Positions 2,801 to 40,697 of a stretch of DNA of 43,071 nucleotides are shown here, in pieces. Location: IMG/VR virus record IMGVR_UViG_3300014489_000001, positions 64,001-107,071 of that record; one strand, 5' to 3'. A program made the position numbers and the translations under genes. The notes under the pieces are model-generated. The model searched no databases, was not told where the DNA came from, and was given only the letters and a program-made list of their open reading frames with translations. This stretch comes from a virus. Lineage: Duplodnaviria > Heunggongvirae > Uroviricota > Caudoviricetes. Position 1 is the stretch's first letter, and each line of letters starts with the position of its first letter.

Positions 2801-2816
2801 CTCTACCTCCTGGGAA

Positions 2817-2854: not shown

Positions 2855-3427
2855 TTACAGCGTTGGTGGTGTCTCGTACACCAAGATGCAGCGAACGATG
2901 CCGACTGTGGCAGTTTCGAGTGTGCCCGTCAAGAGGCAACACAGACTGTAAGTCACTTGACTTGCATTCAAACTTGCAGCGTCACCTGGGACGTTGCCAA
3001 TCTGATATGCTGCTGCCAAGTTAGCAGCACCAGCCAACAGAGAGTGTGGCGCCGAGCCTTCGAGACCGATGCCGAGGGAGGTACCAGTGACACTGGTGAC
3101 TGCCGTCAGAATCTTGAAAGCCGCCAACTTGACCTTGCTGCCGGCCGGAACAACTGCGATTGGCAAATTCGAATTGCCGCCGCTGACAGAGAGGTCAAGA
3201 GTCACGTCGACGCGAACTTCTTGCAGACCAGCCGGATCAGTCATGACGCGAGTACGCAGACCATCGAAATTGAGTTCGACTTCCTGCCTGGTGCTGATGG
3301 TGGTACCACGATTCGGATCGGTGTAGGTACCGTAATTCACCATCTTGATCACGTCGGCGTAGAAATCATATGGAGGCAACGCAGCTGCCAAGCAAGCAGC
3401 GACTGGTTGACCGTTCAAAAACTTCAT
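2855..3427 (-). CDS. Putative virion decoration/structural protein with N-terminal leader MKFLNGQPVAAC
   Basis: RBS GGGAG. C-terminal beta-rich segment (KILTAVTSVTGTSLGIG...VRCILVYE) resembles cement/decoration jelly-roll proteins. Confidence 0.55.
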   Translation of the reverse strand: MKFLNGQPVAACLAAALPPYDFYADVIKMVNYGTYTDPNRGTTISTRQEVELNFDGLRTRVMTDPAGLQEVRVDVTLDLSVSGGNSNLPIAVVPAGSKVKLAAFKILTAVTSVTGTSLGIGLEGSAPHSLLAGAANLAAAYQIGNVPGDAASLNASQVTYSLCCLLTGTLETATVGIVRCILVYETPPTL

Positions 3428-9844: not shown

Positions 9845-12800
9845 TTAGATGTTACCACGCCGCTGTTCACGACGTATTCTGCTGTAAACTGCACGCGCAG
9901 TTTTGTCTGGACTATCTGCACCGTTCACATTGATGTTCATGTGACCGATGCTGTTGTTGACTGTACCACCCGTGGCGTATCCACCGCCTCTTGGCGAATC
10001 TCCACGATTCATTGAAACCAATTGGGAATAAAACTGACGACTCGAATCTGGATTCATAACGAACTCACCAACGCGAGCGTTGATTCGTACATTATCTGGA
10101 CCCATAGCCGAGAAGGCATTTCCAATCAAACCACCGCTTGCGAATCCTTCCTCATCTTCATTAGGTACTGAACCGTTGAAGATATTCGATCTGTCACCTA
10201 CTCCTGGAGAATTTACTGTTAGAACACCACCACCAACAGTTGTTGACCCACCGCCAGGACTTGGCAACGTATACGTGCCATCTGCATTTGGTTTCAATAT
10301 ATTTGGTGCCTTTGGAATATACAAATCCTCAGGTTTGACACCAAACATACGAGCAACTGCTGTAATCGCATCTTGCGAATTCTCAGTATCACGACCTGGT
10401 GAATATTGAAGCATTCGTTGCGCTGTTGCCAAGTTTGATTGATAAAGATTACTCGAATTCACAGCAGGTCCAAATTCCGATCCATTACCTGCTATTGAAT
10501 TTTGAGGACCGCCAGCACCAAATGGTCCACTACCAGTACCAAGTGAACCAGAACCACGTGAACCAGAACCACCGCTAGCACTGACACCAACAGCAGGTCC
10601 TGGGGCAAATGCCGGTGCCGTAGGATGATGCGATGCAGTTGCATGACCAACTGCACCTGTTGCTAGACCATCCATAGCAGTAGCTATCATACCAGCTATG
10701 CCACCACCATGACCTGGAGAAGCAGAAGCAGTATCACTACTACCACCTGCACTTGCTTGTGGTCCAATATTACCGTCCGCATCCATACGTGACGGGCTTG
10801 GTGCTGTTGCACCACGCGGTGTAGTCGCACCACCATTCAAAGAATCCCATAAAGCTTCCGCACTACCAGGTGCTGGTGCAGAGGTTGGCGTTGCTCCTGG
10901 CGACCCAGGTGCCCTCAACGAATCAAACATCGAAGATGCTGCATTCATACTCTGAATTCGCATCTCTCTAACTACTGCCTGCTCTGCCTGCAATCGCACT
11001 ACATTTGCTTCTCTCAGATTGCTGACCGTTGTTCTTCCTTCTTTGATGATACTTCGATCAGCCATCGAGTCACTACGATCTGGATTCCTTGCATCCTTCT
11101 GATCGAAAATCTTCTGAGCAATGTTAAGCAAACGTTCCAACGCCGCCGCAGCAAGCTGCATGTTTTCTGGCGTCTTATCTCTCTGTGCTGCCAAAGCAGC
11201 AGCATTATTTGCAGTTTTAGCATTACGCAACTCAGCTTGGTCTTGTAGACTGATATTGTCCCACGCCGTCAAGTGAGTATGTCCAGCAATCTCATTGCCA
11301 ATCGTTTGAGAATCAGTTAGACCCTTATTCTCCATTCGATTAGCTTCTGATGCATTCAATCGGCTTTGTGCAATCAATTGAGCACTGCTCTTGATTTCAG
11401 CAATAGCAGCATCAAATTTCTGCTTAATCTCGACATGCGCTTGCATAGCATTTCGTAATGCTAATTGTGCGTCTACGTGAGCATTCAATGCGTCACGTGT
11501 ACGACTCAAATCTGCATCGGATGGCGCATCACGATGAATCTGATCGCGTTGCTCGCGACTAATCTGCCCGGCCCTGAGCATCCTATCGGCATTATCCGGA
11601 CCAATCCTCGCAGCCCTAGTAAGCTCGGCCATCACCCTTTCTACACCGCGCGTTAGACTTTCATTTAACGCGGCACCACCACCAGGCCCTGCAAACTGAG
11701 GATTAAGTTCCCCACCATGCTCAACATTGTTTTGACGGAAAAATCTACTTGTAGTAAGTGATGCTTCTTTATTAGCATCACGTTGAGACTTAGAGGCATC
11801 CTCTGCTGATTGTTGACGTTGCCTTAGCATTGCCTGATAAGCAGCTTCTCGTTGTGCCGAAGCAGCATTTAAAGCATTTGCACCTGCTTCACGTTCATCG
11901 TTGAATGGATTATATTGCTGTGCACGTCCAGTCAATCGTCCTTGCAAATCAGCATTACGTCTCGACCGCGCAGCTTCGGTATTAGCAATCTCGTCGTTAA
12001 TGCGTAGAAGTTCTTCTTCTTTACGGCGAGCAGAAGCGATACTAGCATCATCGCCCTTTCTATACAATTCAGCTACTTCTGCTGTCACCCTTGCAGTACG
12101 ATCACGAAGTAAGGTAAGTTGATTTGCAGAATCATTATTTTGCAGCTTATTTAAAGCAACAGCATCTCTTGCCTCTGTACCAGCATGTTTTCCCTTGAAA
12201 GGGGAAACCATGTGCGAACTTCCTGCCGTAGCCAAACGATGCTTGAAAGCATCCTGATCAGCCTTATCGGCAGCCTCACCAACCCGCTTCAAAGAGTTAA
12301 TGATTTCTGCTTCGGCCTTCTTGGCTATGCTTTCAAAATCACTAAGCACTTTACTTAAAGAATGCATAATGCCTTGAGCCGCAGCCTCAGCCTGCTCTTT
12401 CATCTGACTTGCAGCTTCCCTCGCCGACTCAACGGCTTTCTGGGATTCCATTACTTGCGGTTTGAATGATTGAGTAACAACCTGTTCTTGCATCCTTGCA
12501 GTGCCTTCTGTTTCCTCCCGCTGACGACTCAGACCAGCATTATAAGCTGTTTCATTTGCTGCCCTAGCCTCATTTAACTTCCTTGTTGCCTCCGTCATTC
12601 CAGCAAGTTGGCGATTTATTAGGCCCAAACCTTCGCCAACCTTACCCAACCAGCCAGCCCAAATAATAAAGCCATTAACAGTATTAACAATCACTGGTGC
12701 CCATTTAGCAATCTCAGTACCGATTGCAATAATCGGTCCAGAAAATTCACCAAATGCTTTGAAAGCATCAAGAATCTTAGGACCAATTTCGGTTGCGAAT

Positions 12801-14026
12801 GCTGTCGCAATCTTATTGAACTCAGCCTGGAACGTAGTATTCTCACGAATGACTTGTCCAGCCCGCGCAGCTTCTGCTGCAAGCTCTTCACGATTATTAA
12901 GAGGATTTTCTCCCCTACTTAATTCTTCGCCTAATGTCAGAGTACCAAGGGCGCGACGCGATGAAAGTAATTTTCTAGCTGACTCGCCAGTTTCATCCAT
13001 TCGTTCGGCTAGGAGTCTTAAAACATTACCCAATCCGCCATCAGCCGCAGCCGCTTGAACACTGACATATCCGTGATTCAGAAGAATCTTATCAAATTCT
13101 GCTGTTCTTCGTTCAAGCCCCGTCAATGTGCCTTGCAACTGAGACATTGCATCGGCGCCGGTTGAACCGCGTGCTTTGAGTAGCTCGAAAGCATGAAGCA
13201 TGTCCGGCAAGGTGATATTCAGACGAGCAGCACTTGCACCTGTATTGCGAAGTGTATCACCAATTGACTCAAGATCACCACCGTGTTGTGCCACATGGAA
13301 CAACTGATTCATCGTGTTGGCAGCTTCACTTGTAGGAAGCCTGAAAGCCTGCATTATGCCACCTAAGGTGGACATAGCTGAGCCAGTCGATATACCAGCC
13401 ACCTGGGCTAATCGCATAGCCTCAGTCAACGTGTTCATGTCTCCGGCCGATTGAATGGCTCCAGACTGAACACCTTGTCTTGCTGCTGATGCTACCTCAC
13501 CAATTGGCTGATTGAACTGATTAGCTCTCTGGGCCATTTGCTGGCCTAATTGCTGCGTATTACCAACATTTTTATTGAGGGCCTGAATTTGGCCCATTTT
13601 TGCTTGGAATTCAGCAGCAGCCTTGACAGCTTCTCGCATACCGGAAGCGATGTCAAGAAAGACGTGACGAATCGTTGTAACTGCAAGCAAACGAGCAATG
13701 CTGGTCGCAGTAAGTCCAAAAATGCCGGCAGTTTTCTTGGCAGCATTTCCAGCATTATCAAGTTCTTTAGTAGCTTCTTTTAACTTGATGCTGACGGCTT
13801 CCCAACCCTGTGCCGTATTCTTCAAAGTACCTTGTATCTGCTGACCAGCGCTATTGATTCCTTGAAAACCAATCTTTAATTTTTCACCAATGTCATTGAC
13901 TTGCGTCCAAGTTTTAGAAAGCTCGAATGATGCAGTATTGATTCCAGAAAGCGCACCACTAGCTTGTGCTGCACCGCTGACGACACCACTGGCATCAAGC
14001 AGGATTCTTTCAACTGTATCAGCCAT
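9845..14026 (-). CDS. Tape measure protein (TP901-type core), 1393 aa
   Basis: Long helical Ala-rich protein downstream of the chaperones. Core repeat (AMSTLGGIMQAF...LKARGSTGADAMSQL) and the typical C-terminal GFASGG...GEFVMN motif. Confidence 0.92.
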   Translation of the reverse strand: MADTVERILLDASGVVSGAAQASGALSGINTASFELSKTWTQVNDIGEKLKIGFQGINSAGQQIQGTLKNTAQGWEAVSIKLKEATKELDNAGNAAKKTAGIFGLTATSIARLLAVTTIRHVFLDIASGMREAVKAAAEFQAKMGQIQALNKNVGNTQQLGQQMAQRANQFNQPIGEVASAARQGVQSGAIQSAGDMNTLTEAMRLAQVAGISTGSAMSTLGGIMQAFRLPTSEAANTMNQLFHVAQHGGDLESIGDTLRNTGASAARLNITLPDMLHAFELLKARGSTGADAMSQLQGTLTGLERRTAEFDKILLNHGYVSVQAAAADGGLGNVLRLLAERMDETGESARKLLSSRRALGTLTLGEELSRGENPLNNREELAAEAARAGQVIRENTTFQAEFNKIATAFATEIGPKILDAFKAFGEFSGPIIAIGTEIAKWAPVIVNTVNGFIIWAGWLGKVGEGLGLINRQLAGMTEATRKLNEARAANETAYNAGLSRQREETEGTARMQEQVVTQSFKPQVMESQKAVESAREAASQMKEQAEAAAQGIMHSLSKVLSDFESIAKKAEAEIINSLKRVGEAADKADQDAFKHRLATAGSSHMVSPFKGKHAGTEARDAVALNKLQNNDSANQLTLLRDRTARVTAEVAELYRKGDDASIASARRKEEELLRINDEIANTEAARSRRNADLQGRLTGRAQQYNPFNDEREAGANALNAASAQREAAYQAMLRQRQQSAEDASKSQRDANKEASLTTSRFFRQNNVEHGGELNPQFAGPGGGAALNESLTRGVERVMAELTRAARIGPDNADRMLRAGQISREQRDQIHRDAPSDADLSRTRDALNAHVDAQLALRNAMQAHVEIKQKFDAAIAEIKSSAQLIAQSRLNASEANRMENKGLTDSQTIGNEIAGHTHLTAWDNISLQDQAELRNAKTANNAAALAAQRDKTPENMQLAAAALERLLNIAQKIFDQKDARNPDRSDSMADRSIIKEGRTTVSNLREANVVRLQAEQAVVREMRIQSMNAASSMFDSLRAPGSPGATPTSAPAPGSAEALWDSLNGGATTPRGATAPSPSRMDADGNIGPQASAGGSSDTASASPGHGGGIAGMIATAMDGLATGAVGHATASHHPTAPAFAPGPAVGVSASGGSGSRGSGSLGTGSGPFGAGGPQNSIAGNGSEFGPAVNSSNLYQSNLATAQRMLQYSPGRDTENSQDAITAVARMFGVKPEDLYIPKAPNILKPNADGTYTLPSPGGGSTTVGGGVLTVNSPGVGDRSNIFNGSVPNEDEEGFASGGLIGNAFSAMGPDNVRINARVGEFVMNPDSSRQFYSQLVSMNRGDSPRGGGYATGGTVNNSIGHMNINVNGADSPDKTARAVYSRIRREQRRGNI

Positions 14027-15286: not shown

Positions 15287-16441
15287 TTAGTGAGTGATAA
15301 CTTGGTTGAACGCGTCCTTGGCCACACGAGTGACCGTCGGTTGAGTGAGGTTGCACTTCGCCGTGCACGCGATCATACCGGTCTTTGCATCGTGCTGGAG
15401 TTCTTCGTACCGGAACTCCGCGAGGTCGATGATTTCATTGTCCACGCCGGGGCACGGTGGGACATAGTAGATTTGCAATCGGACGCAATACGGTTCGCAA
15501 GGATCGACACCGGCCGTCACCCAACCAGCAGCCTGGCCGGTTTGCTTGAGGGCGTCTTCCACCATGATGGCTTCACCGCTGGACGACTTGATGAAGACCC
15601 AAGCGAACTCAAGTTTGATTTCGAGTGGGTCTTCGTCACCGTTTCGCACTGCATCCAAGAAGCCACGATTCTTCTTGTATTCGCGTGGCTTCTTCTCGGT
15701 CCACGTGCAGTTACCGTCGCCCAGCTTCACGTTCAGGCTGTGCGGCTGGATGGTCAATGACTGATCATCCTGAACACCCACGGACAAACCAGGAGTGAAT
15801 GTAATCGAAGTCGTGTTGCCATCCGTCTCGGTATGCGCCGTGACGGTGTAAACATTGTCGTCAGGCAGACGATTCGTATCCGTTGGTACGATCTTGAACG
15901 TGTCACCAACGCTCCAGATGCCAGTGCCGGTGTCGATCAACATGGTCGTCGCAGCAACCGCGTATGCGTACACACCAGTAATCACTGCGGCCGATACGAA
16001 AGTGATTGGCGCCGAGCCGCTTGTTTCCATACTGTTATCGGAGTCGACCGTAATCAGATTGGTTTGTGGCTCACTTGCCAAGACGCCAGCAAATGTCACA
16101 GTGAATGGACCAGCGCCCGTTGTACCAGTCACAGTAACGCCACCAGCACCGATTGTTGGAATACTTACCAACGATGCCTGGAGTCCAGCAGCAGTGTAAG
16201 TGCTAGCCCACGCAACTGTGGACTTTGCGCCGAGGAAATCAAAATCAGTTGATCCGGAACCACCAACAGCCGTTGCGCTGAGTGTCAAGGTTTGGGTGGC
16301 AACAGTGCCAGCGTTGTTCACGAGGAACGAGCCAGCTGCAAGGCCGGGGCCGATGTAGCCGTCGTAGATAAAGACGTTCGCGTTCTTGAGGTCGAAATAC
16401 GCGCAAAACGTCTGAACCGGAATACCGGAAAGAAACTTCAT
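15287..16441 (-). CDS. Major tail tube protein with two inserted beta domains and leader MKFLSGIPVQTFC
   Basis: RBS AGGAG. Split tube fold (FDLKNANVFIYDG ... LNVKLGDGNCTWTEK...LEIKLEFAW...FRYEELQHDAKTGMIACTAKC) and highly-expressed codon style. Confidence 0.85.
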   Translation of the reverse strand: MKFLSGIPVQTFCAYFDLKNANVFIYDGYIGPGLAAGSFLVNNAGTVATQTLTLSATAVGGSGSTDFDFLGAKSTVAWASTYTAAGLQASLVSIPTIGAGGVTVTGTTGAGPFTVTFAGVLASEPQTNLITVDSDNSMETSGSAPITFVSAAVITGVYAYAVAATTMLIDTGTGIWSVGDTFKIVPTDTNRLPDDNVYTVTAHTETDGNTTSITFTPGLSVGVQDDQSLTIQPHSLNVKLGDGNCTWTEKKPREYKKNRGFLDAVRNGDEDPLEIKLEFAWVFIKSSSGEAIMVEDALKQTGQAAGWVTAGVDPCEPYCVRLQIYYVPPCPGVDNEIIDLAEFRYEELQHDAKTGMIACTAKCNLTQPTVTRVAKDAFNQVITH

Positions 16442-17437: not shown

Positions 17438-17704
17438 CTATTTAGTCCTAATGATCTCCAGCGTCTTGTTCACCAATTCTCGTAACGGAGTATACAGCTT
17501 CGTTACAGATGCCTTAATGATTTCAGCACCAAGGTTTTGTTGATTGCTGTAAACAACAACAGGTTTGTTTAGATTCATAGGCTGATCAGCTACAACCACA
17601 TCACATGGACTATGCTCATCACCTATGAATGCATCGAACCCTGATGCATTTAATGCCGACACCAACATTGTTCCTGCTTGTGCTATAATACAAACACGAA
17701 TCAT
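17438..17704 (-). CDS. Minimal receiver (CheY-like) fold protein
   Basis: RVCII..., DVVVADQPM, PVVVYS follow the REC strand order; the acidic pocket after beta1 is missing. Confidence 0.45.
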   Translation of the reverse strand: MIRVCIIAQAGTMLVSALNASGFDAFIGDEHSPCDVVVADQPMNLNKPVVVYSNQQNLGAEIIKASVTKLYTPLRELVNKTLEIIRTK

Positions 17705-18108
17705 TTTGGTACTCTCCGTTCGAGGTCTTCGACTTGCGAACGGAGAATTGTGTTAGCTGCTTTCAATTTTTCAATTTCGGCAGAATTTTCATTCTTCTCT
17801 GTTTGCAATGCAACAATCTGCTGTTTCATGTTCACGTTCTCCATCAACGTTGCGATATGTGCAGTCTGCATATCAAGAATGCGTTGCTGGACTTCCAGCA
17901 ACTTAGATTCAAGTTTGTTCGATTTGTCAATTTGATCTTGACTAAGTTGACGATAGTTTTTGACAATGAAATCGATGTCAGATTGGGATTGAACCGTTTT
18001 ATCCTTCTTACGGTTTGTGACCCACTCAGAAATCTTAGGCAGGAGAGCCCCTAAGCCAGTCATAACAGTCATCAACACGCCAACCCAAACTGGATGAATT
18101 GGTTCCAT
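17701..18108 (-). CDS. Single-TM coiled-coil protein (holin-like or membrane anchor)
   Basis: TM segment VWVGVLMTVMTGLGALL followed by a long heptad coiled coil. Confidence 0.6.
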   Translation of the reverse strand: MEPIHPVWVGVLMTVMTGLGALLPKISEWVTNRKKDKTVQSQSDIDFIVKNYRQLSQDQIDKSNKLESKLLEVQQRILDMQTAHIATLMENVNMKQQIVALQTEKNENSAEIEKLKAANTILRSQVEDLERRVPK

Positions 18109-18110
18109 TT

Positions 18111-18764
18111 TTATACTCTCGTAAGGAAACACTCAGCTGGATCGCGGAGAAACGGTTTCAAATATGACCAAGCCCGAAAACTAGGGATACCAGCACGCAT
18201 GTAATCAGGAATGAAGTCACGATTGAAAGCAGTGCGAACACCGCTAAAAGAGTGACTCTCCGTGGCCAGCAAGTCTGCCTCGCGGTCAGGATCGTATCCT
18301 TGAATTAGCTTCATAGCTATTTCATAGCAAGCATATTGAATGTCAGTTGGGACCACTGTGTCAGCAGCATCGTCCAGAGAAGCCAACGTTACAGGGATAC
18401 CAGATTCATTCACAACGATCTGGGTTGGTGATGCAATCGGCCCACGTGGAAACTGATGTACTTGAGACGGATCGGTTTTATTTCCAGCAAAATTCAACCG
18501 ATCAATCATCTGCGTAGCTTCATGCAATGCGGATCGTTTGTCGTTACTATTCGCACGTTTCCAAGGTGTACTTCGAAGACGATTATCGAAGTAATTATTC
18601 GCATCTGACAATGTCCCATAAGCATCCAGAAATTGACTATTGTCAATTGTCGGAAAATGGACCGGGAATAAATTATGCAGCAACGACCGAACAAGATTGT
18701 TGGCCGTTGCTGGGCCATGCGTCAACGTCAAAGTATTCGTCAGTGATTCATTGAAAGTTGACAT
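18111..18764 (-). CDS. Head-tail adaptor (DnaT-like/SPP1 gp15-like)
   Basis: YGTLSDANNYF...W...KRSALHEATQMID...QFPR...VPTDIQYACYEIA motif set of phage adaptors. Confidence 0.8.
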   Translation of the reverse strand: MSTFNESLTNTLTLTHGPATANNLVRSLLHNLFPVHFPTIDNSQFLDAYGTLSDANNYFDNRLRSTPWKRANSNDKRSALHEATQMIDRLNFAGNKTDPSQVHQFPRGPIASPTQIVVNESGIPVTLASLDDAADTVVPTDIQYACYEIAMKLIQGYDPDREADLLATESHSFSGVRTAFNRDFIPDYMRAGIPSFRAWSYLKPFLRDPAECFLTRV

Positions 18765-22841: not shown

Positions 22842-22871
22842 AGCGGACCTCAGTGTAAAAATGACGTTTCG

Positions 22872-22939
22872 GTCTCGCTCCACAAAGTGGAATCCCCGAT
22901 CACGGCGTCAATCCGGCCTTCACAACGTCAAGGCGAGAC
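22872..22939 (-). ncRNA. Putative four-way-junction (tRNA-like) structured RNA
   Basis: GTCTCGC/GCGAGAC closing stem with three internal hairpins: CCTT/AAGG, CCG(G)AT/ATCGG, TCCAC/GTGGA. Confidence 0.4.
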
Positions 22940-22946
22940 ATCTGAG

Positions 22947-23020
22947 TCGCGGGAGCAGGATTCGAACCTGCGTCGGACGGCTTATGAGACCGTGCTGGGA
23001 CCTCTCCAGTCGATCCCGCG
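22947..23020 (-). tRNA. tRNA-Met(CAT), elongator or Ile2 type
   Basis: Acceptor CGCGGGA/TCCCGCG, anticodon arm ACGGT-CTCATAA-GCCGT, T arm GCAGG-TTCGAAT-CCTGC. Lacks initiator hallmarks. Confidence 0.9.
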
Positions 23021-23026
23021 AACATA

Positions 23027-23054
23027 AAGCCTGGTGGCTCATAGAGCCACCAGG
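23027..23054 (-). terminator. Hairpin after the major capsid gene
   Basis: CCTGGTGGCTC-TAT-GAGCCACCAGG followed by a short CTTTATGTT tail. Confidence 0.65.
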
Positions 23055-23106
23055 TAATCTAAGCCACAAGGACTTAGTAATCCCATTGCTGGGAGTGGTT
23101 AACGAG

Positions 23107-24513
23107 TTACGCCAACATGACAGCGCCGAGGTTCGTGTCGAGGGTCTTGATACCGGCGAGGATATCGAGAGTCACACGCGTGCCCTGGGCCTTGCCGTCG
23201 TAAGTCAACACAACACGAACGGACAGGCCGTTGTAGTTGACGTTGGCTGCGGCAGCGCCGATTCCCTGGCGAGGCAGTTCCATCGGACGAGTCACCAACG
23301 CGATGGCGTTCCGGTGGAAGGCGAAGTTGTATTCGCCGGCCGGGGACAGATTCACATTGTCGCCGTCATTGATGGCGACTTCCAGCGAACGATCCAGAGT
23401 AACACCAACCAGCGCGTCGACCGCGATAATCGTGTACACGGCGTTCGTGCCGACAACACCGAAGGAAACCAACTGGCCAACCACAGGAGCCACGGTGAAC
23501 ACGTCGACCGTGATTTCCTTGTTGTAACCAGCCGGATAACCAGCCGGGCTGACAGCCTGATTCACCGCACCCACGACGTAGTTCGTGATGATTGCATCGT
23601 CAGCCACAGCCGCCTGGAGAGGAGGCGTGAAGACGAGTGTCGTCACCGAAGAAGTACCACCCGTGATGACACGGTGAGGAATCGTGTCGCCAGCCACCGT
23701 GAACCACATGTTCGCAGTGAAGTTGGTTGTGCCGGTGTCGATGACCATCGTGGTCGCACCAGCGGCGTAGCCACCGGAGTAATTCACGAGGTAGGTGATG
23801 TCAATCGAGTTGCCAACGGCAACGGACGACTGGTGCTGGCACATGTACGTGTTGAAACCGTACTTGCGGCCGATGAAGGCTTCCTGCAACGCCTGGCCCT
23901 GGTCACCGACCTGTTGAGCCTGCGTGAAGATCGCCAGGTTCAAGAGTGTGGTTTCCGTGGTCGGAGTGAGGATCAAGTTTCGGCCATCGACGTAGGCCAG
24001 ATTCTTGTTCATCTTCTCGCGCGTGCCGAGGATGGCATCCACGCCGTTGGAAGTCGTCATCGCATTCAAGTAGCCGTAGCTGTTCGGCATGAAGTTCGCG
24101 ACCTGGCCGAGAACGACTTTGTCGAGGAACTGCGCATGTGCCAACATGGCTGGCCGCATGTATTCGGTCACCAGGTCCTTGAAAGACTTGCTGGATTCCG
24201 AATCGTAGATCACGAAGGACACGTGGATCAGCTGATCCAGCACGACCGGGACGTTGGTCGCCGTCGCATCTTGATCGGTCACGTCTTCCGTGCCGGTCTT
24301 ACGCAAAGCGGTGAACTTGGATGGCCGACGCGTATTGACCGTATCGCCGTAAGAGGCGATCAACGGGCTGAAATCGCGGTGGACCAGGTTCGCTGCGACC
24401 ATGTTTTCCTCAAGGATGGCCAGGGATTCCTGTGCCCACATCTGAGGAACGTACGCGCTGTTGTCGTTCACGCAAAAGGTTTGAACCGCAACAGCATTCA
24501 AGAATTGCAACAT
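23107..24513 (-). CDS. Major capsid protein (HK97 fold, P22-coat-like) with two inserted beta domains and leader MLQFLNAVAVQTFC
   Basis: YVPQMWAQESL, LVHRDF..., GDTVNTRRP, FIGRKYGFNTYM, AFHRNAIALVTRPM, YD...LDILAGIKTL. RBS GGAG fits the ATG at 24513. Confidence 0.93.
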   Translation of the reverse strand: MLQFLNAVAVQTFCVNDNSAYVPQMWAQESLAILEENMVAANLVHRDFSPLIASYGDTVNTRRPSKFTALRKTGTEDVTDQDATATNVPVVLDQLIHVSFVIYDSESSKSFKDLVTEYMRPAMLAHAQFLDKVVLGQVANFMPNSYGYLNAMTTSNGVDAILGTREKMNKNLAYVDGRNLILTPTTETTLLNLAIFTQAQQVGDQGQALQEAFIGRKYGFNTYMCQHQSSVAVGNSIDITYLVNYSGGYAAGATTMVIDTGTTNFTANMWFTVAGDTIPHRVITGGTSSVTTLVFTPPLQAAVADDAIITNYVVGAVNQAVSPAGYPAGYNKEITVDVFTVAPVVGQLVSFGVVGTNAVYTIIAVDALVGVTLDRSLEVAINDGDNVNLSPAGEYNFAFHRNAIALVTRPMELPRQGIGAAAANVNYNGLSVRVVLTYDGKAQGTRVTLDILAGIKTLDTNLGAVMLA

Positions 24514-24531
24514 TTTCAAATTCTCCGAGTA

Positions 24532-25353
24532 TTAGACCTTGTTAAGGCCCGTTTTGATACGATAAGCCCGATACTGTTCTGTAGTCATCGTAGATGGATC
24601 AACTTCGCCGCCCCTGCCGCCGCCACTACGATTACCGGCACCAACGCCGGCAGTTGCAGTAGATTCGAACAGGTAACCGAACCGAGGATTCTCTTTCATC
24701 TTCGCGACAACCTCGGGGACAGTCAGATCGAGATTGACAACCTTGCCATCTTTGTCCTTATCGACATACTTCGTCTTCGGGACAAATTGACCGGTCGCTT
24801 TGCCTTCGTCATCAATCACTTCGACCAAACGTGTCTTGGGTTCCAACATGGCGATCAATGCGTCAGAGTCGAACGCCTTGTGGGTAACCGCCTCACTTGT
24901 GATAGCTTGCTGGATTTGAGTCGTATGGAAACGATTCTTCCAGGAGTCACGATCCTCGGTGAGTTCTTTGGTCGTGGTCTCAAGCGTCTTCTTGAGTTTT
25001 TCCTCAGTCTTGGCAGCCAATTGTTCTTTCGTCAGAACGCTGTTTTGCAAATCTTCGATCTTTTGCGCCAGGTTATGACGCTCTTGATCGTTCAGGCTTT
25101 TCGATTTCTTGAGTTGTTCAAGTTCAGCAACGTGTTTGTTAATCTGAGTCACGTGCTTACGGCGATCTTCCGCCACGATCTTGTTCACTTCATCCTGAGT
25201 GAACGACTTCTTCGCAGCAGCCGCAGCGTCAGCCTTAGCCTTCGCCTCTGCCTCTGCCGCCTGTGCTGCCGCAGCCGCTTCTGCTTCCGCAGCCGCAGTA
25301 CCGTCGTCTTCGCCTTCGCAGTAAGTGTAGACCAGTTGCCCATTAAGATACAT
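24532..25353 (-). CDS. Capsid scaffolding protein with leader MYLNGQLVYTYC
   Basis: Acidic Ala-rich linker, KKSFTQDEVNKIVAE motif, coiled coil, C-terminal DPSTMTTEQYRAYR. Lies between portal and MCP; RBS GGAG fits 25353. Confidence 0.88.
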   Translation of the reverse strand: MYLNGQLVYTYCEGEDDGTAAAEAEAAAAAQAAEAEAKAKADAAAAAKKSFTQDEVNKIVAEDRRKHVTQINKHVAELEQLKKSKSLNDQERHNLAQKIEDLQNSVLTKEQLAAKTEEKLKKTLETTTKELTEDRDSWKNRFHTTQIQQAITSEAVTHKAFDSDALIAMLEPKTRLVEVIDDEGKATGQFVPKTKYVDKDKDGKVVNLDLTVPEVVAKMKENPRFGYLFESTATAGVGAGNRSGGGRGGEVDPSTMTTEQYRAYRIKTGLNKV

Positions 25354-25411
25354 TGTTGAGAACTCCGAAAACCCTACATAAGTAAAACTCGATGAGACGT
25401 AGGTAATCTTA

Positions 25412-27184
25412 TCAAGCTTTGACATTGGCACCGGCAGCATTGCCTCTTACCGGTTTGCCTTGTTTCTCTTTCTTACTTGCTTGAGGATCAGTACCACTGT
25501 CACTGATTCCACGAGCTTGAGGATCACTACCGGGCGGGTCACCAGCTGGCGCCACCTGTGGTGCCGGTGTCTGAGCCGCTTGAACTCTAGCCAAACGATC
25601 AGCATGGTCCTTCTCAGCCTTCTTCGATTCCCCGTCAGCATAACCGCGAAGTTTCGAAGCTGTTTCTGTACAAACCAAACCATTCTGTACGTCGACGGTA
25701 ATCACATCCGGGTCGCTACTCAACCCAGGTGCATTATCGATTTCCTTGTAAATCTTAGTCATGACTTCCTTGGAGCTTGTAGCACCAAGTAAGGCATTTG
25801 CCAGTTTCTTACCAACATTCCGTTGATAAGTTTGACTTGGCACTAAGGTCAACATACCACCCAATTGAGTAGCTTCATTGCGACGATCAGTTTCCGTCCG
25901 AAGAGTATAGTTGTCTGGATAATTAACCGTCGCAACCGGCAGATTCTTCTTTTCATACATAGACCATATGTTGGCGATCTTTCGTTCGCCGTTTTCCAAG
26001 GTCAACCCGATGTAACTCAAACCGGATTCCAAAGTAGCTTCATCCTTGGTCTTGGATTCAGCCGAAGCCATCCTTGGGCCTTTGAGATTCGCAATCGTCA
26101 AATTAAGCAGTAGTCGAATCTCAGCCATCAACTGAGCCTGTTTCTCCATAGATGCCCTCATAGGCTCCGGAGAAGGATTGATAAATGCAGGTGGATTCAA
26201 CCCTCGTGGATATTTTCTACCCTTACTGACACCAACCCTGACTTCTTCATTGCCGGCTACACCAGAGCCAGCGACCTGTCCTTGCGTACCATCATTTCCA
26301 GGACCGCGTAAATGAACACTATCAGCACGCGGCTCGTATTGCTCAACGTAGAACGGAAAGTTCGCTTTCAGAGCATACGACATATCTGCCGAAGCCAAAT
26401 TCAGTAAAGCAATTTGGTAATCGGCGATATTTTTCATCAACGAGTCTGAAATCTCGAAGAGGACAAAGGGGACGATTGGTAGCTCAAGGACAATTGGCTT
26501 ATCAATTTTGTTTCCGAGTTTGTCAACTGGCTGCGATTTTTCATCGTAGAACGAGACGAGGATTGCGCCGTCTTCCCGCCATATACGCCGGAAACGCTCG
26601 GTGTAGCTAGTCGGGAAGCCGAAGTCCGGGTCGTACTCATAAATGTAATCCCTCAATAGGACCGCTTTAAATTGACTCGGGTCTTCCGCGTCATCAAGTG
26701 CCCAAGCCCGAATGTCTTCTGTGAAGTAAGTGTACAAGTATGGATGCTTGCCACTTACATCGGCTAAAGATGAACCAGGCTTGAGCGGTGGCATATCTAC
26801 ATAGACACCCACCTTTTTCATCTTTAACATTTCTTCGAGGACGTGGCAACCAATGTAATAGTTCATTGAACTACCACAAAGGTCAACACCATTTTGACGA
26901 CCTTCACAAGCTTCTTGATAACTCTTGCTACCACCCACTCGCGTCACATCAGACATGCGTTGGTAGATGGAGTTCTTCACTTCATCTAATCCGGCTTTAG
27001 CGAAAGCAGGACAGTATGACATATCTCGACGTGTCAAGAAGTCGCTATCGTCTTCACGATTGCTGAACTGCTTGAGGTATTTCAAGATAAAAATGTGGCC
27101 TGATTCGTAAGTATATCGCCATTTTATCCATTGCTGCAACATCAACTCATAATCTGGGTGAGTAATGTCTGTTATCATGCTCAT
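25412..27184 (-). CDS. Portal protein (DUF4055/SPP1-like)
   Basis: HPDY...W..W...Y.....YLKQFSNREDDSDFLTRR N-terminus typical of this portal group; size and synteny fit. Confidence 0.88.
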   Translation of the reverse strand: MSMITDITHPDYELMLQQWIKWRYTYESGHIFILKYLKQFSNREDDSDFLTRRDMSYCPAFAKAGLDEVKNSIYQRMSDVTRVGGSKSYQEACEGRQNGVDLCGSSMNYYIGCHVLEEMLKMKKVGVYVDMPPLKPGSSLADVSGKHPYLYTYFTEDIRAWALDDAEDPSQFKAVLLRDYIYEYDPDFGFPTSYTERFRRIWREDGAILVSFYDEKSQPVDKLGNKIDKPIVLELPIVPFVLFEISDSLMKNIADYQIALLNLASADMSYALKANFPFYVEQYEPRADSVHLRGPGNDGTQGQVAGSGVAGNEEVRVGVSKGRKYPRGLNPPAFINPSPEPMRASMEKQAQLMAEIRLLLNLTIANLKGPRMASAESKTKDEATLESGLSYIGLTLENGERKIANIWSMYEKKNLPVATVNYPDNYTLRTETDRRNEATQLGGMLTLVPSQTYQRNVGKKLANALLGATSSKEVMTKIYKEIDNAPGLSSDPDVITVDVQNGLVCTETASKLRGYADGESKKAEKDHADRLARVQAAQTPAPQVAPAGDPPGSDPQARGISDSGTDPQASKKEKQGKPVRGNAAGANVKA

Positions 27185-31735: not shown

Positions 31736-33421
31736 CTAAACAGGTACGCTGGACATGTTCTGTGACTGCCCCACATTGAACGCAAATGGCAGAGCAATCT
31801 CTGCATAGTTACGTGCATGTGCCAAGTGGTCTTCGTCTCGTTCCTTCTTGACATACTTGCCAACAGGATTACCGTCCTGATCTTTTTCATACACACGCAC
31901 CAAAGCTTTTAGGTGCATGATATATTCAAGATCAGTATCAATAGGAAGATCAATGCGTTGAGCCTTGATACGACCTAATGACATATCCAGCCAAGATGTA
32001 CGGTCCACCGTAATCGTCGGCTCGGATGTATTCATTGTACCATCATCGTTTTTACCGACGTGGATTTGCTTACCTTGAACACCACGACCATAGAAGCACA
32101 TCTTGACGTAACCCCAGAATCTCGATGCGAACTCAAAAGCCTTTCGGCGTTCAGGATTAGCGTCGATAACACAGAAGTTAACGCGCCATTGTCGCATCAA
32201 TACATCAAGTTCTTCAAATGTAAACACTTTGCCCATCGTAATGACGCGGCAATATGATTCCATGTTGAGGTCGTTCTTGACATAGGGCGGTGGTTGCCAC
32301 ATGTCAATTTCGTAGTGAATCCATTTACCAACGTCAACACCCATCGTGACAACATTGGTAACTTTTGTTTCACACTTTTTGTAGTTCTTGAAACAAGCTT
32401 TAATCATTTCATCAGAAAGCTTGGCTCCAGCTACAGTGTGGGCTAATCCGCCCTTAGAGTTCCAGTATTCTTGCTCATCAGCAGGGTTGAATTCTGCCTT
32501 AATCGCCGCTTGTGCCAACTGATATGGCGTTACTGTCGGCGAGTATTGCTGATGGATGTAGAATCCACGCTCTTCTCGGTCGGTGTAGCTCTTGACCCAC
32601 ATGCCACTTGCAAGCCACTCGAACTTAGTCTTATGTTCAAGCTTAGCTTTGCATTGCAAGCAAATCAAGTGTGAGTTTTTCAAGTCAGGATCAAACAGGT
32701 CTTTACCTGTGATCACCAATGACTTAGGAAACTCAAGTTCAACCATCCGGCTACAACTAGGACACTTGAAAAAGAAGTGTTCCTGTGTCGTCAAGCCGTA
32801 CAAATCGTCGATACCAAATGTCGGTATCGTTGGTGTACTAATCGCCCAAGCTGACTTAGTCAACTGGCCAGACTGTCGTTCCATAGCCAACGGGATGTTC
32901 TTTTCCACCATCTCGTCGACTTCGTCCATCACTAAGAATCCGACTGGAATGGACTTGAGTTGAGATCGACTTTTACTTCCTCGGATGTATAAGTTAGTTG
33001 GCCCAGCTCGCTTATGCCCAATGTTCTTGACATCGGAGAACATATTGGAAAGGTGCGGCGATAATTCGAGGGCAGGGTCAAATCGTCCGGTACTAAAATC
33101 GGAGGCATCGGGAGTCTTCGAGGGAAGTACATAAAGACAATCCACCCTTTCAATGTCGATTTTAAAGAATGTGAGGTTCAATACACATTCAGTATAACCC
33201 ATCTGAGCCGACTTCTTACCCACATTGAAGTCCGCCGTGGAATCATGCATCTCCCTAAGCCAAGGATGATGCTTGAATCGCCACGGTCCTGGGAAGTCCT
33301 TGCCTCCCAGGATTCGGTACTTCTCAGCCCATTGAGATGGAGTAGTGATTGCTTTCCTACCCAAACCGGCAGCTATCCGTTCCGCCATCTCACGGACAAG
33401 ATTGTGAGTAAATTTAGACAT
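31736..33421 (-). CDS. terL: Terminase large subunit, lambda gpA-like
   Basis: KKSAQMGYTE (gpA-type Walker A), LVMDEVDE (Walker B), ISTPT, Zn motif CPSC...CLQC, MGVDVG nuclease Asp, DHLAHA. Confidence 0.95.
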   Translation of the reverse strand: MSKFTHNLVREMAERIAAGLGRKAITTPSQWAEKYRILGGKDFPGPWRFKHHPWLREMHDSTADFNVGKKSAQMGYTECVLNLTFFKIDIERVDCLYVLPSKTPDASDFSTGRFDPALELSPHLSNMFSDVKNIGHKRAGPTNLYIRGSKSRSQLKSIPVGFLVMDEVDEMVEKNIPLAMERQSGQLTKSAWAISTPTIPTFGIDDLYGLTTQEHFFFKCPSCSRMVELEFPKSLVITGKDLFDPDLKNSHLICLQCKAKLEHKTKFEWLASGMWVKSYTDREERGFYIHQQYSPTVTPYQLAQAAIKAEFNPADEQEYWNSKGGLAHTVAGAKLSDEMIKACFKNYKKCETKVTNVVTMGVDVGKWIHYEIDMWQPPPYVKNDLNMESYCRVITMGKVFTFEELDVLMRQWRVNFCVIDANPERRKAFEFASRFWGYVKMCFYGRGVQGKQIHVGKNDDGTMNTSEPTITVDRTSWLDMSLGRIKAQRIDLPIDTDLEYIMHLKALVRVYEKDQDGNPVGKYVKKERDEDHLAHARNYAEIALPFAFNVGQSQNMSSVPV

Positions 33422-34808: not shown

Positions 34809-35417
34809 TTACTCAGCTTCTAAAGCCTTCTTTATGTTCTTAGCATGTACGCTAAATCCTAATCCATTCTGTTGAGTGGCCACATTGATGCCAAGTAACT
34901 CACCGTTGATATTGAACAACGGGCCACCGGAGTTACCAGGATTGATGCAAGCACTGGTTTGAATCAAACCGTGAAGCGTTATGGCTGTCAGTTCCATATC
35001 ACGGTCAAGGCCACTGACGATACCGGTCGTTACCGAATTTTTCTGACTATAAGGATGACCAATAGCGATTGCGACCTCGCCAATGAGCGGGTCGAGGCAC
35101 AATTTTACTGGTTTTAGCTCGATTTTGACCCTCACAAGAGCCAAATCGTAGTTAGGATCGTCGAAAATCACTTGGCCATCGACGATTTTGCCGTCATTTG
35201 TGTATATTTGTACGGTTGAGTATGCCATTACAACGTGACTTGCAGTTGCAATCACGTCTTTACTGACAGCGATTCCTGTTCCTCGTGCTCGTTTTCCGAT
35301 TTTCACTGCAACAACGCTATCGTAAGTGTCTTTATACACTTTCGATACATCTGTGCTGCGTTCAGCGGCACAAACTGGAAAAACAAGCACGAAGAACAGG
35401 AATAATCGCTTCATCAT
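34809..35417 (-). CDS. Secreted trypsin-like (S1C, HtrA/DegP-like) serine protease without PDZ
   Basis: Signal peptide; TASHV (His), DLALV (Asp), INPGNSGGPL (Ser). Confidence 0.95.
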   Translation of the reverse strand: MMKRLFLFFVLVFPVCAAERSTDVSKVYKDTYDSVVAVKIGKRARGTGIAVSKDVIATASHVVMAYSTVQIYTNDGKIVDGQVIFDDPNYDLALVRVKIELKPVKLCLDPLIGEVAIAIGHPYSQKNSVTTGIVSGLDRDMELTAITLHGLIQTSACINPGNSGGPLFNINGELLGINVATQQNGLGFSVHAKNIKKALEAE

Positions 35418-36709
35418 CACACCTTTGCATTAGCATTGATGTGGCCAGCGTAGCCATTCTTGTGGCTATAGAGGAATGCTTGTGCAGCCCTCATGCCGCC
35501 CACATAGCCCTTTTTGAAATGCCACGAATCAGTTCCACACAAACTCGGTAGAACACGCACCAAGACGCCATCAATAGTCTCGGCAGAAGAATAATGAGTC
35601 TCTTTCACTTTGTGATAGTGACCAATCTTCCACTCTCGGTGTTTAGTTCGTGCCCAAGCTTGCGGCCAAGCACCAGCCATAATCGCTGGTAAGGAAGCAT
35701 GTTTTTCTTCATTGCCGTGAGTGTATGCAAGTAGGTTCACACCATACTCAACATGTTTTCTCGGCATTTCGGTCGCATCAATCGTGACATGAGGCGTCTG
35801 CCGATAATGCGCTTCAAGAACTTTGATTAGATACCAAGAGGTATTCCAATCGTGATTACCTGGAACCCACAAAACATCTACAGGTGCGATACCCATCAAC
35901 AGGTCGATAAGATTAATAAGAGCTTTCTGGCCTGTTGAAAAGATCTTGGCTAGACGACCATCAACATCTTGTGGCGTCCCGGCTGTTGTCATGTTTGCAG
36001 GGCCATCAATATGGAAGAAATCCTGCCCAATCGGGAGAACAATCTTCTCAATATTGAAGTTTCGTGATTTTTCAATCAACTCGTGGGCCGCGTCACTAAA
36101 GATTCGCTCAGCGATCTTCAAATCGTAATTCTCGCCTGTTTCGCGGCCCCAAGCGAGTTTACCAAAATGATGATCCCAGATGCTTACTTCAAGCATATAA
36201 GGATCAACGTGATGCTCAAATTTATGCGGCTCATATTTGTGAGCAGGAATCTGAGCAAGGAAGAGCTTGACGCCCTCCTCAATCATCTTCGGTACTTTGC
36301 GGCGAAGCCAAATCTTGACTTGCCATAATTCCACGGCAGCCAATTGGCGTTTCCAATGGTTGTGGTGTACTTTTTGTGACTCGACACGGCCAACGCAATC
36401 CCACTTGTTGATCATGTGTTCCTTAACTTCCCAGATTGATAAATCGACCTGAGCAGTTTTGAGAGCATCAGCAATAGTCCGAATAGTCGAACTCTTGCTG
36501 GTGATTACGACAGCATCTTCGGTTTCCGTTTGTTCAAAACCCTCTTCGGTCGGTTCATTGTCAGTTTGATTACCAAGTGTTCGCCACTTGCAATCAATCT
36601 GAACTTTGGTTCGGCCCATACGTTCGGCGATGTCTTTTGATGTCAAGTCTTGCTGTTTGAGCAGTTTCAGTGTATCTTCTTCGGACGCAGACCAAGCCTT
36701 ACCGGCCAT
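35417..36709 (-). CDS. HTH/Myb-like domain + calcineurin-like metallophosphoesterase
   Basis: WSASEEDTL...IAERMGRT N-terminus; DHHFG, GQDFFH, PGNHD, THG and GHYH motifs. Confidence 0.85.
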   Translation of the reverse strand: MAGKAWSASEEDTLKLLKQQDLTSKDIAERMGRTKVQIDCKWRTLGNQTDNEPTEEGFEQTETEDAVVITSKSSTIRTIADALKTAQVDLSIWEVKEHMINKWDCVGRVESQKVHHNHWKRQLAAVELWQVKIWLRRKVPKMIEEGVKLFLAQIPAHKYEPHKFEHHVDPYMLEVSIWDHHFGKLAWGRETGENYDLKIAERIFSDAAHELIEKSRNFNIEKIVLPIGQDFFHIDGPANMTTAGTPQDVDGRLAKIFSTGQKALINLIDLLMGIAPVDVLWVPGNHDWNTSWYLIKVLEAHYRQTPHVTIDATEMPRKHVEYGVNLLAYTHGNEEKHASLPAIMAGAWPQAWARTKHREWKIGHYHKVKETHYSSAETIDGVLVRVLPSLCGTDSWHFKKGYVGGMRAAQAFLYSHKNGYAGHINANAKV

Positions 36710-36744: not shown

Positions 36745-37308
36745 TCACTCTGAGCCGCCCCAAATTCTACCTGTTGGGCATTTTGGGCACTCAAACCACC
36801 CAGGCGTCAAAGGATAGAGAGTATGAAGGATACCCATACGAATCCTTTCTTGGCTCGTATAGACATTAAAATCAACACGAACCAACTTGCCATTCTTTGG
36901 AACACCGACGATGTATCCAGGTTTTTCACCTTGGATAGCTTTTACTTGGACAACTCGCCAAGGTGTGTTGACCAAGTGAGTGACACCAGCAACCTCAATG
37001 ATTACTGGTTGTCCATCCTCGATAGCCTTGGCATAGATTGCTTCCAAATCCATTGGATGGTTACAATCTTTGCATACACAAGTTCCAGTTGTAACGCAAC
37101 CACAAACACATTTAGCGTTTGGATTACCTTCATTGCAGTTCTTACAGGTACATTTCCCTGTAGCAGTGCAACTGCATTTACAACCAGAATCGAGAGAAAC
37201 TTCCGCAAAGGCGAAAGCAGCTTTCGCCTTTGCGGACATTGAACTCTCACCGTGTACGACGATTACTGCACTAAGCAGTATGATCAATACTCCGATGAAA
37301 CGAGTCAT
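36745..37308 (-). CDS. Secreted protein with two metallothionein-like Cys repeats
   Basis: Signal peptide; CKCSCTATGKCTCKNC and CVCGCVTTGTCVCKDC. Confidence 0.75.
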   Translation of the reverse strand: MTRFIGVLIILLSAVIVVHGESSMSAKAKAAFAFAEVSLDSGCKCSCTATGKCTCKNCNEGNPNAKCVCGCVTTGTCVCKDCNHPMDLEAIYAKAIEDGQPVIIEVAGVTHLVNTPWRVVQVKAIQGEKPGYIVGVPKNGKLVRVDFNVYTSQERIRMGILHTLYPLTPGWFECPKCPTGRIWGGSE

Positions 37309-37317
37309 TGGCGCTCC

Positions 37318-37623: not shown

Positions 37624-37635
37624 GGTAGTCACCTT

Positions 37636-39174: not shown

Positions 39175-39176
39175 GA

Positions 39177-39401
39177 TTACGCCATCTTGTTAGGTTCTTT
39201 GGCTTGATCCCAAGTGTTACCCTGGGCCGTAGTGACAATCTTCACACCATTGTGCACAATGGTGCCTTGCATACCAGCGATGGCTGCATCGTAATCCATT
39301 TGTGGACCACCGCTACAGGCTTCCGGCAAAGGGCCAGAGCGGTTCTTCGACATGTCTTGGTTGCACCAAGTCTTGTCGGCGTAGCCGTTCATGAACTTCA
39401 T
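39177..39401 (-). CDS. Small hypothetical protein with leader MKFMNGYADKTWC (74 aa)
   Basis: RBS GGAG and ATGA overlap fix the start at 39401. Confidence 0.7.
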   Translation of the reverse strand: MKFMNGYADKTWCNQDMSKNRSGPLPEACSGGPQMDYDAAIAGMQGTIVHNGVKIVTTAQGNTWDQAKEPNKMA

Positions 39402-39697: not shown

Positions 39698-39716
39698 ACG
39701 TCATTACCCTCCAAAA

Positions 39717-39744: not shown

Positions 39745-39752
39745 ATGAGTTG

Positions 39753-40697
39753 TTAAAACACCCAAGGAATCATGTCCGCAAGGAATCCGTCGAATGCGGA
39801 ATACGCGAACACTTCTTGCTGGTCGCAAATATACTGCATATCAGCTTTGCGAACCCAGAATCCACCGCCTGGAGCGCCGGAGGGGCAAATACCATGGCAT
39901 AACCAACCCCAGGAATTTTGAATCCAGAAGATTTCGCCAAGGTTTGGATGGTCCCAATATGCCGACACCGACATCTGGTGGTTCCATGTGGTTACTCTTC
40001 GATTGAGCAACACACCACTGGTAACACCTGGCGACATCTGTCCGCCCCAATTGGACGCACAGGTAACGCCATACTTGTTGACGAGAGCATCACGAACATC
40101 ATCCGTTGTACGCATCAAAGCAGTCGTCTTGACAGGGTGAAGCTTACCCTGAGTGACATACTGAGCGGGTGCACCATGGTCACCCCATGCACGATCGATT
40201 GCACCTGGCCAATTCAGTGTCTTGCCATCGTCATCATACGTGTACTTCTCAGCATTGACATCGAAGTCAATAGGAAGAACACCGTACTTGACTGCGGCTT
40301 CGGCACAACCAGAACCGGTGCCACCGTCGTCATTGTCACCATTGCTTCCAGTGATTCCTGCACACACGCGACCCATGGCATAGCCATAAGGTTCGTAAGG
40401 CATGACGAACTTCTGCGACGGATCGAGCAGAATCTGATTCAGCATCGTGTAGGCTTCGGTCTTGGCTTTGCCTTGACCAGTACACGAACCAACGTTTTGA
40501 TAGAAACAAGGCAGGTCTTTACCGAGGACGGAGCGAGCAGCGTCCCATAGACAAACCTTCTCAACCGCCTTGAAATTGCCCTTCATTCGGAAAGCGGGCA
40601 TAGAACCCATAATCCGATTATGTTGGTCATTTTGATCGGTAGACCGCTTATCAGGATGCAGCCAACCTGCTTCCAGGTGCTGTCCATCTTTGTACAT
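39753..40697 (-). CDS. Papain-like (C1A) cysteine protease
   Basis: QNVGSC (oxyanion Gln, catalytic Cys), WNHQM (His), WIQNSWG (Asn). Confidence 0.9.
   Translation of the reverse strand: MYKDGQHLEAGWLHPDKRSTDQNDQHNRIMGSMPAFRMKGNFKAVEKVCLWDAARSVLGKDLPCFYQNVGSCTGQGKAKTEAYTMLNQILLDPSQKFVMPYEPYGYAMGRVCAGITGSNGDNDDGGTGSGCAEAAVKYGVLPIDFDVNAEKYTYDDDGKTLNWPGAIDRAWGDHGAPAQYVTQGKLHPVKTTALMRTTDDVRDALVNKYGVTCASNWGGQMSPGVTSGVLLNRRVTTWNHQMSVSAYWDHPNLGEIFWIQNSWGWLCHGICPSGAPGGGFWVRKADMQYICDQQEVFAYSAFDGFLADMIPWVF

Follow-up and report, generated by a model that had tools for sequence, protein, structure and literature searches.

Why should unrelated late proteins of a single tailed phage begin with the same short peptide? 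The question is raised by the last 43 kb of a 107,071-bp IMG/VR phage record (IMGVR_UViG_3300014489_000001, positions 64,001 to 107,071; the whole 43,071-nucleotide stretch is called the window below), where the late genes lie on the minus strand throughout and five open reading frames (ORFs), those of the coat protein, the scaffolding protein, the tail tube protein, a 190-residue protein of the tail module and a 74-residue orphan, share an N-terminal leader of 12-14 residues with the pattern M(K)F(L/M)(N/S)G....T(F/Y/W)C. Comparison with relatives indicates that this Cys-ending tag is the local form of a modular leader that ends in Tyr and occurs throughout the family. An earlier, sequence-only reading of this DNA had noticed the shared peptide on the five proteins; the present analysis adds its junction with the protein that follows, a concerted switch of its last residue between Tyr and Cys, the exclusion of the Prp protease across a sample of the host phylum and a papain-like candidate enzyme. 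The tagged proteins are the following (↓ marks the junction, here and below).

23107-24513, minus strand: P22-like coat protein (major capsid protein), whole
24472..24513, minus strand: coat leader, MLQFLNAVAVQTFC; junction set by leaderless homologues starting M↓ANS(L/F)(D/S)AF
23107..24471, minus strand: mature part of the coat protein, P22-coat-like (PF11651, E 3e-30; phrog_283, E 1e-59)
24532-25353, minus strand: scaffolding protein, whole
25318..25353, minus strand: scaffold leader, MYLNGQLVYTYC; all homologues begin at the matching Met, with leader ends ...TYC↓EGE or ...(F/Y)↓EGE
24532..25317, minus strand: scaffold body, acidic, Ala-rich and coiled (phrog_206, E 7e-15; weak PF06810 match)
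15287-16441, minus strand: tail tube protein, whole
16403..16441, minus strand: tail tube leader, MKFLSGIPVQTFC; leaderless orthologues start MA(R/Q)I(E/D)L(R/K) at the junction
15287..16402, minus strand: tail tube body (major tail protein), from gene position, Atlas neighbours that are tail-tube families, and structural matches from residue 13
39363..39401, minus strand: leader of the 74-residue orphan, MKFMNGYADKTWC, from a match to the consensus as a regular expression
39177..39362, minus strand: body of the 74-residue orphan, function unknown
3392..3427, minus strand: leader of the 190-residue protein, MKFLNGQPVAAC, one residue shorter, from the same kind of match
2855..3391, minus strand: body of the 190-residue protein, encoded distally in the tail module; no family assigned

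The five N-termini quoted in the sequence-only reading were confirmed at their coordinates, and a GGAG site lies 6-9 nt ahead of each tagged start, with uniform spacing. The consensus proposed for them, written as a regular expression, has exactly 5 matches in the six-frame translation of the 107,071 bp, each directly after the start Met. When the first 18 residues of 161 ORFs were compared all against all, 6 of the 10 pairs among the five fell in the top 15 of 12,880 pairs, the top score being 43 and the background averaging 11.4 (standard deviation 3.3). A leader profile run over 8,209 candidate N-termini of this genome and of the complete sister genome G006 retrieved the five leaders here and three in G006, and nothing else. 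Using only leaders of six other phages to build the profile, and scanning 3,734 candidate N-termini here, we recovered the coat protein (E 7e-5), the tail tube (2e-4), the 190-residue protein (0.02) and the scaffold (0.1), all within the top five genes; the 74-residue orphan was missed by this outside-only profile and resembles only the phage's own leaders. Chance as an explanation of the shared motif, put to these three kinds of scan as an enrichment test, was not upheld: the five-protein tag is real and far beyond chance. The copies differ at synonymous codons, as had been remarked, with Thr encoded by ACC, ACT or ACG and with variation at the Phe, Asn and Gly codons too. For the orphan, no Pfam or PHROG family was found, an Atlas search gave nothing usable, and no homologue is present in G006. 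The label "decoration-like" that had been attached to the 190-residue protein finds no support: its gene is positioned in the distal tail module and no Pfam or PHROG family is matched.

Relatives of the coat protein were collected from viral contigs, genome contigs and a protein database, the database search giving 1,424 matches at E <= 1e-20; the leader counts refer to 111 full-length coat homologues. A leader is present in 108 of these, usually 14-15 residues long (range 5-36), and their consensus is (K/Q)F(L/I)xAxPFxTVY↓AND. Its last residue is Tyr in 83 homologues, Phe in 7, His in 6, Gly in 5, Cys in 3 and Asn in 1. Leaders of scaffold homologues end in Tyr, Phe or Cys followed by (E/D)G(E/D), and the tail tube is tagged in nine genomes, this phage included, with the form leader↓A(Y/Q/A)(F/I)DLK. 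Similar coat and scaffold leaders occur in prophages of Thermoguttaceae, Pirellulales and Planctomycetaceae metagenome-assembled genomes (MAGs).

The place where the leader stops is given by proteins that lack it. Three of the 111 coat homologues are leaderless and start with the motif listed above where the others read leader↓AND, and it is these that fix the coat junction; tail tubes without a leader, found in at least 13 genomes, start exactly at the tube junction; and two paralogues of the 190-residue protein in G006 have no leader and start MATPQAALEF... and MAVSTPNLDY.... In this phage the residues that follow the junction are VNDNSAYVPQMW... in the coat protein, AYFDLKNANV... in the tube and EGEDDGTAAA... 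in the scaffold, and PF11651 aligns with coat residues 19-234 over profile positions 5-221, position 5 corresponding to residue 19. Indeed, the earlier claim that the fold begins right after the tag agrees with the leaderless orthologues, which start exactly there; a leader forming part of each fold is the opposite of what the coat and tube orthologues and the 190-residue paralogues display. Pairwise identity (n = 94) averages 0.25 in the last 12 residues of the leader and rises to 0.56 in mature residues 1-12 and to 0.88 in residues 13-24. Modularity, exact junction and fast leader divergence together mark an appended propeptide and not a part of each fold, in line with the proposal of a protein-level tag, separate from the fold and common to head and tail proteins.

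Leaders of one genome also change together. Across 13 genomes, the BLOSUM score between scaffold and coat leaders over their last 7 residues is 20.0 within a genome and 2.6 across genomes, and 0 of 100,000 permutations reach the observed score of within-genome matching. Within this phage's own subclade, three genomes (this phage, L068 and L071) have nine leaders, every one ending in Cys, and four sister genomes (G006, L069, L072 and L073) have twelve, every one ending in Tyr; the terminal codons are TGC or TGT for Cys and TAC or TAT for Tyr, so that a single transition, TAC to TGC, makes the change. Recent gene conversion as the cause of the concerted Cys was rejected, given that neighbouring synonymous sites (Thr codons) differ. 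The simplest reading of the concerted change is one shared reader of the leader end that would differ between phages, and the switch would then amount to a natural experiment on specificity. The Cys type does not form a single clean clade in the coat tree, where P0006 (Cys) groups with P0007 (Tyr) with support 96/96; this implies either more than one switch or recombination. The emphasis that had been placed on the Cys itself finds no support, as the position is Tyr in the majority of the coat relatives counted above and in all leaders of the four sister genomes, and Cys is a variant of the lineage. Moreover, if a cut falls where leaderless orthologues begin, the Cys would leave with the leader; an exposed or cross-linking N-terminal Cys appears unlikely as the core function.

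We favour the reading of the leader as a modular propeptide that a single trans-acting factor recognises, with a probable cut after the terminal Tyr or Cys, and judge the chances of this reading to be about even. It takes as its basis the modularity, the exact junction, the family-wide spread, the fast divergence and the within-genome concert of the leader, and the lack of Prp, of an extended ribosomal protein L27 and of a head-module protease, all drawn from sequence comparison. Coat and scaffold nearly always bear the leader and the tail tube often does; in this phage two more late proteins have it. A 12-14-residue assembly leader would thus be placed on proteins that polymerise in bulk, in a large lineage with a P22-like coat that probably infects Planctomycetota. 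One trans-acting factor would read the non-prime side, a hydrophobic and aromatic pattern ending Thr-x-Tyr or, here, Thr-aromatic-Cys; an endopeptidase would most likely cut right after the last leader residue, and the cut would release mature N-termini in the same register as the leaderless orthologues. Until its removal the leader would hold the subunit in an assembly-incompetent or chaperoned state, in line with what has been proposed for the 80alpha/Prp leader. We infer from the sequences that the tag is cleaved and, by analogy, that it gates assembly.

The closest analogue in architecture is indeed that of Staphylococcus phage 80alpha, whose coat gp47 and scaffold gp46 carry one leader cut by the host protease Prp; the coat of phage 80, the major tail protein of phi13 and ribosomal protein L27 have the Prp-type motif too, and the 80alpha scaffold leader is needed for assembly whereas its cleavage is dispensable (Wall et al. 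2015; PMC5744158). Prophage relatives of the present phage are located inside large contigs or chromosomes of Thermoguttaceae, Pirellulales and Planctomycetaceae MAGs, and Planctomycetota is the most likely host phylum, as suggested for this phage by prophage relatives whose coat proteins are 37-43% identical to its own. A search for Prp (PF04327, MEROPS C108) drew no match from the phage genome, from five host genomes with related prophages or from 151 sampled Planctomycetota genomes, and the control genomes matched. In the five host genomes L27 starts MAHKKGQGSS directly after Met, with no extension, which leaves no host protein for the leader to mimic. Mimicry of a host Prp/L27 system was thus rejected, Prp being absent from the phage and 156 Planctomycetota genomes and host L27 being unextended. 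The suggestion that the tag is analogous to the 80alpha/Prp leader but distinct from it stands on both sides: coat, scaffold and tube share it, and the motif differs and Prp is missing. Literature searches found no paper on such leaders outside the Prp system, nor on virion proteins of Planctomycetes phages.

Which enzyme might then cut the leader? Pfam and PHROG scans of 30 gene products of the window found no prohead protease of the S77, S78/U35 or ClpP/S49 type, and the portal gene abuts the scaffold gene, leaving no room for one between portal and coat genes, as had been observed. Three protease-like proteins (S1, S8-like and papain-like) are encoded in the window; they are listed with the portal gene.

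25412-27184, minus strand: portal protein (phrog_145, E 2e-29), from the ORF map, adjoining the scaffold gene
39753..40697, minus strand: papain-like (clan CA, C1-like) cysteine protease, predicted to be cytoplasmic, from catalytic residues and fold; candidate processing enzyme in this subclade only
34809-35420, minus strand: trypsin-like S1 protease (Pfam Trypsin_2, E 1e-27) whose N-terminus resembles a signal peptide; lies just upstream of the terminase genes
1808-2842, minus strand: 344-residue S8-like protein (weak Peptidase_S8 match, E 1e-3), directly downstream of the gene for the 190-residue protein

The S1 protein (34809-35420), which has a signal peptide and looks exported, and the S8-like protein (1808-2842), which the sequence-only reading had called S53-like, were both rejected as the enzyme, being absent from the leader-bearing sister G006. 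The product of 39753-40697 has no Pfam match at E <= 0.01 and no PHROG or PDB sequence match, and its profile reaches PDB entries only at E ~0.05, to aminopeptidase C and xylellain, as befits a very divergent member. Gln67, Cys72, His240, Asn261 and Trp263 are invariant in 45 homologues; the AlphaFold2 model made with these has a predicted local distance difference test (pLDDT) score of 92.9, compared with 31 from the single sequence, and Foldseek aligns it with xylellain (3ois, E 1e-10) and cathepsins B, L and S at probability 1.00, among 274 PDB matches at E <= 1e-3. No signal peptide is seen. Catalytic set and fold agree, which supports the papain-like identity suspected by the sequence-only reading: on model and sequence, the protein is predicted to be a divergent, cytoplasmic papain-like protease.

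The distribution of this gene is part of what makes it a candidate. It shares contigs with the coat relatives that are at least 75% identical, no other protease is common to all leader-bearing genomes of this phage's subclade, and host genomes seldom have it (2 of 151); only 56 homologues of it turned up, compared with more than 1,400 for the coat protein. The expected co-occurrence of the leader with a specific protease thus holds for the papain-like gene within the subclade and fails for the leader phages at large, which share no enzyme. Small prophages that carry leaders and lack the papain-like gene limit it to a subclade solution at most. As a separate observation, one Thermoguttaceae chromosome carries a papain-like homologue (L066 = G001:C1:3579307-3583236) about 2.1 Mb from a leader-bearing prophage.

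Papain-type enzymes have an S2 pocket that prefers a hydrophobic residue at P2. At the junction of the 111 coat homologues P2 is Val in 56, Ala in 16, Phe in 13 and Cys in 7, and in the five leaders here it is Phe, Tyr, Phe, Trp and Ala; a hydrophobic P2 at an independently defined junction suits such a pocket. A complex prediction for the protease with coat residues 1-45 gave a score of 0.00, in a series without control runs, and weighs neither for nor against the proposal. Eight protease columns (14, 22, 23, 85, 108, 224, 226 and 283) differ between the Cys type (this phage and P0124) and six Tyr-type sequences; with 2 against 6 related sequences compared, they are only a lead. That the papain-like protease processes the leader in this phage is a tentative proposal that we regard as possible and rather doubtful. 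The wider proposal, that the leader is the recognition tag of a new morphogenetic protease system in which the papain-like enzyme would trim coat, scaffold, tube and accessory proteins and its last-residue specificity would co-evolve with the substrates, we consider unlikely. We know of no role of the C1 family in phage morphogenesis, and literature searches found none; if true, this would be the first clan CA maturation protease in tailed phages, acting on head and tail proteins alike.

A number of observations weigh against a cleaved leader with a single reader. All support comes from sequence inference and no cleavage was observed; no enzyme is common to all leader-bearing phages, and among 40 ORFs flanking the coat gene in six Planctomycetota prophages there is no recognisable peptidase. 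The papain-like gene is not within 10 kb of the coat genes in small leader-bearing prophages and is absent from 3 of the 5 host genomes of small prophages. A search of five host genomes for proteins with a leader-like N-terminus, made with a 12-column prophage-leader profile of low sensitivity, returned only prophage genes and non-N-terminal noise. The host of this phage is assigned only through the prophage relatives at 37-43% coat identity mentioned above, and the dispensable cleavage in 80alpha (PMC5744158) means that a tag can work without removal. Finally, one contig is mixed: its coat leader ends ...QTFN and its scaffold leader ...YTYC. This 98,880-bp contig (P0002, P0182) is the closest relative, with 87% coat identity, and the sole mixed genome seen; its scaffold leader holds a duplicated INGF(K/N)C stretch.

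Among the alternatives, a leader that is retained and never cut is a serious rival to cleavage, and we hold it to be a minority prospect. It could be a docking peptide for a chaperone or assembly site, or leaders could pair, for instance as scaffold-coat strands: the within-genome matching is expected of self-pairing peptides, a hairpin could form around the NG or SxP centre with its hydrophobic flanks, the search for a universal protease found none, and the scaffold leader of 80alpha is needed for assembly and its cleavage is not (PMC5744158). Leaderless coat and tube orthologues in the same register, however, suggest that fold and assembly are independent of the peptide, and the leader has changed far more than the mature N-terminus next to it; as the tagged proteins end in different structures (shell, scaffold and tube), direct pairing would also have no obvious role.

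Short N-terminal tags shared by unrelated phage proteins are familiar from the T4 internal proteins, and the two small tagged proteins here could be cargo of the same kind, loaded into the prohead by a T4-type capsid-targeting sequence (CTS) that a prohead protease then removes. This is very improbable, as there is no prohead protease of a known family in the head module, in the scanned genes of the window or in six prophage modules, the leader has no (L/I)xE-type end, and the tail tube, tagged in the nine genomes, is not head cargo. A similarity at the level of nucleic acid or translation, such as a 5' coding element raising the expression of abundant late proteins or a linker for recombination at the starts of genes, also seems hardly credible: the tagged genes do include the three most abundantly needed proteins, ribosome-binding sites and spacing are uniform, and the codon bias of coat and scaffold is extreme, but the amino-acid pattern is kept while synonymous sites are free, the DNA varies widely across the family while the hydrophobic and aromatic pattern and the exact junction persist, and the concerted one-residue switch between Tyr and Cys has no rationale at the RNA level. 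Weakest of all is a Cys-centred signal, a lipobox or a device for exposing or modifying an N-terminal Cys, for which all five leaders here end in Cys and VAAC in the 190-residue protein resembles a lipobox, and which is extremely improbable given that 12-14 residues with no hydrophobic core (h-region) are too short for a signal peptide, that most relatives and all leaders of the four sister genomes have Tyr instead, and that coat, scaffold and tube are cytoplasmic assembly proteins.

The remaining late genes of the window frame the tagged ones; the tail tube gene follows the head-completion genes and precedes those for the chaperone and the tape measure.

31736-33421, minus strand: terminase large subunit, from late gene order
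between the coat and tail tube genes, minus strand: head-completion genes
9845-14026, minus strand: tape measure, followed by the distal tail genes

Database gene calls put the scaffold start at an upstream ATG (297 residues, 24532-25440), which overlaps the end of the portal gene and hides the leader inside the protein; the start at 25353 is backed by the homologues, all of which begin at the leader Met. An antisense open frame of 832 codons (22861-25359, plus strand) spans the entire coat and scaffold genes. It results from the fact that these two genes contain zero TTA, CTA and TCA codons, of which there are 12-15 in portal and terminase, and points to extreme codon selection rather than to a gene. 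A tRNA-Met (CAT; 22946-23020, minus strand) lies directly downstream of the coat gene, and a cluster of four tRNAs (Glu-TTC, Pro-TGG, Ala-TGC and Asn-GTT) occupies 103-412 on the plus strand. A small, conserved single-pass membrane protein (17701-18132, minus strand) is encoded at an odd location, between the coat (or adaptor) gene and the head-completion genes, with counterparts at the same place in L003, L019, L021, L029, L068, L069, L072 and L073. The stretch 36745-39746 (minus strand), with the 74-residue orphan, a 99-residue ORF and a calcineurin-like metallophosphoesterase (38236-39174), separates the papain-like protease from a secreted 187-residue protein; the latter two genes are adjacent in G006, and the stretch is an insertion specific to this phage lineage.

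To our knowledge, shared leaders on phage structural proteins are understood in two settings only, that of Prp, whether of host or phage, in Firmicutes, and that of the prohead proteases of T4-like phages. Tagging of coat, scaffold and tail tube recurs in the very large uncultivated phage family described here, with its more than 1,400 coat homologues and its prophage relatives in Planctomycetota, a phylum in which, as sampled, Prp is lacking and L27 is unextended. Cleavage of the tag, if it occurs, implies an unknown processing enzyme, which could be a host protease with an unknown cellular substrate or the phage papain-like enzyme. The modular leader also provides a means of placing start codons correctly in these phages and of finding more of their assembly-linked proteins.

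Set beside known systems, the putative protease resembles C1 peptidases such as xylellain and cathepsins B and L in its Gln-Cys-His-Asn-Trp set and its fold, and differs from typical members in falling below detection by Pfam PF00112, in being phage-encoded and in having no signal peptide. The leader is like the T4 CTS and the propeptides cleaved by gp21 in being a short N-terminal peptide common to unrelated proteins and thought to be removed; unlike these, it goes with no prohead protease and no (L/I)xE end, it is found on tube and scaffold, and the coat is P22-like. With the 80alpha/Prp system it has in common a 13-14-residue N-terminal leader on non-homologous coat, scaffold and major tail proteins, the lack of a phage prohead protease in the head module, an aromatic residue right before the junction and often Ala after it (aromatic P1, frequent Ala at P1'), and recognition that would lie on the non-prime side. 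It departs from that system in its motif, which is (K/Q)F(L/I)xAxPFxTVY↓A, or ...T(F/Y/W)C↓ in this phage, instead of (K)LNLQ(F/H)F↓A, and in a leader that drifts, co-varies within each genome and switches its last residue between Tyr and Cys.

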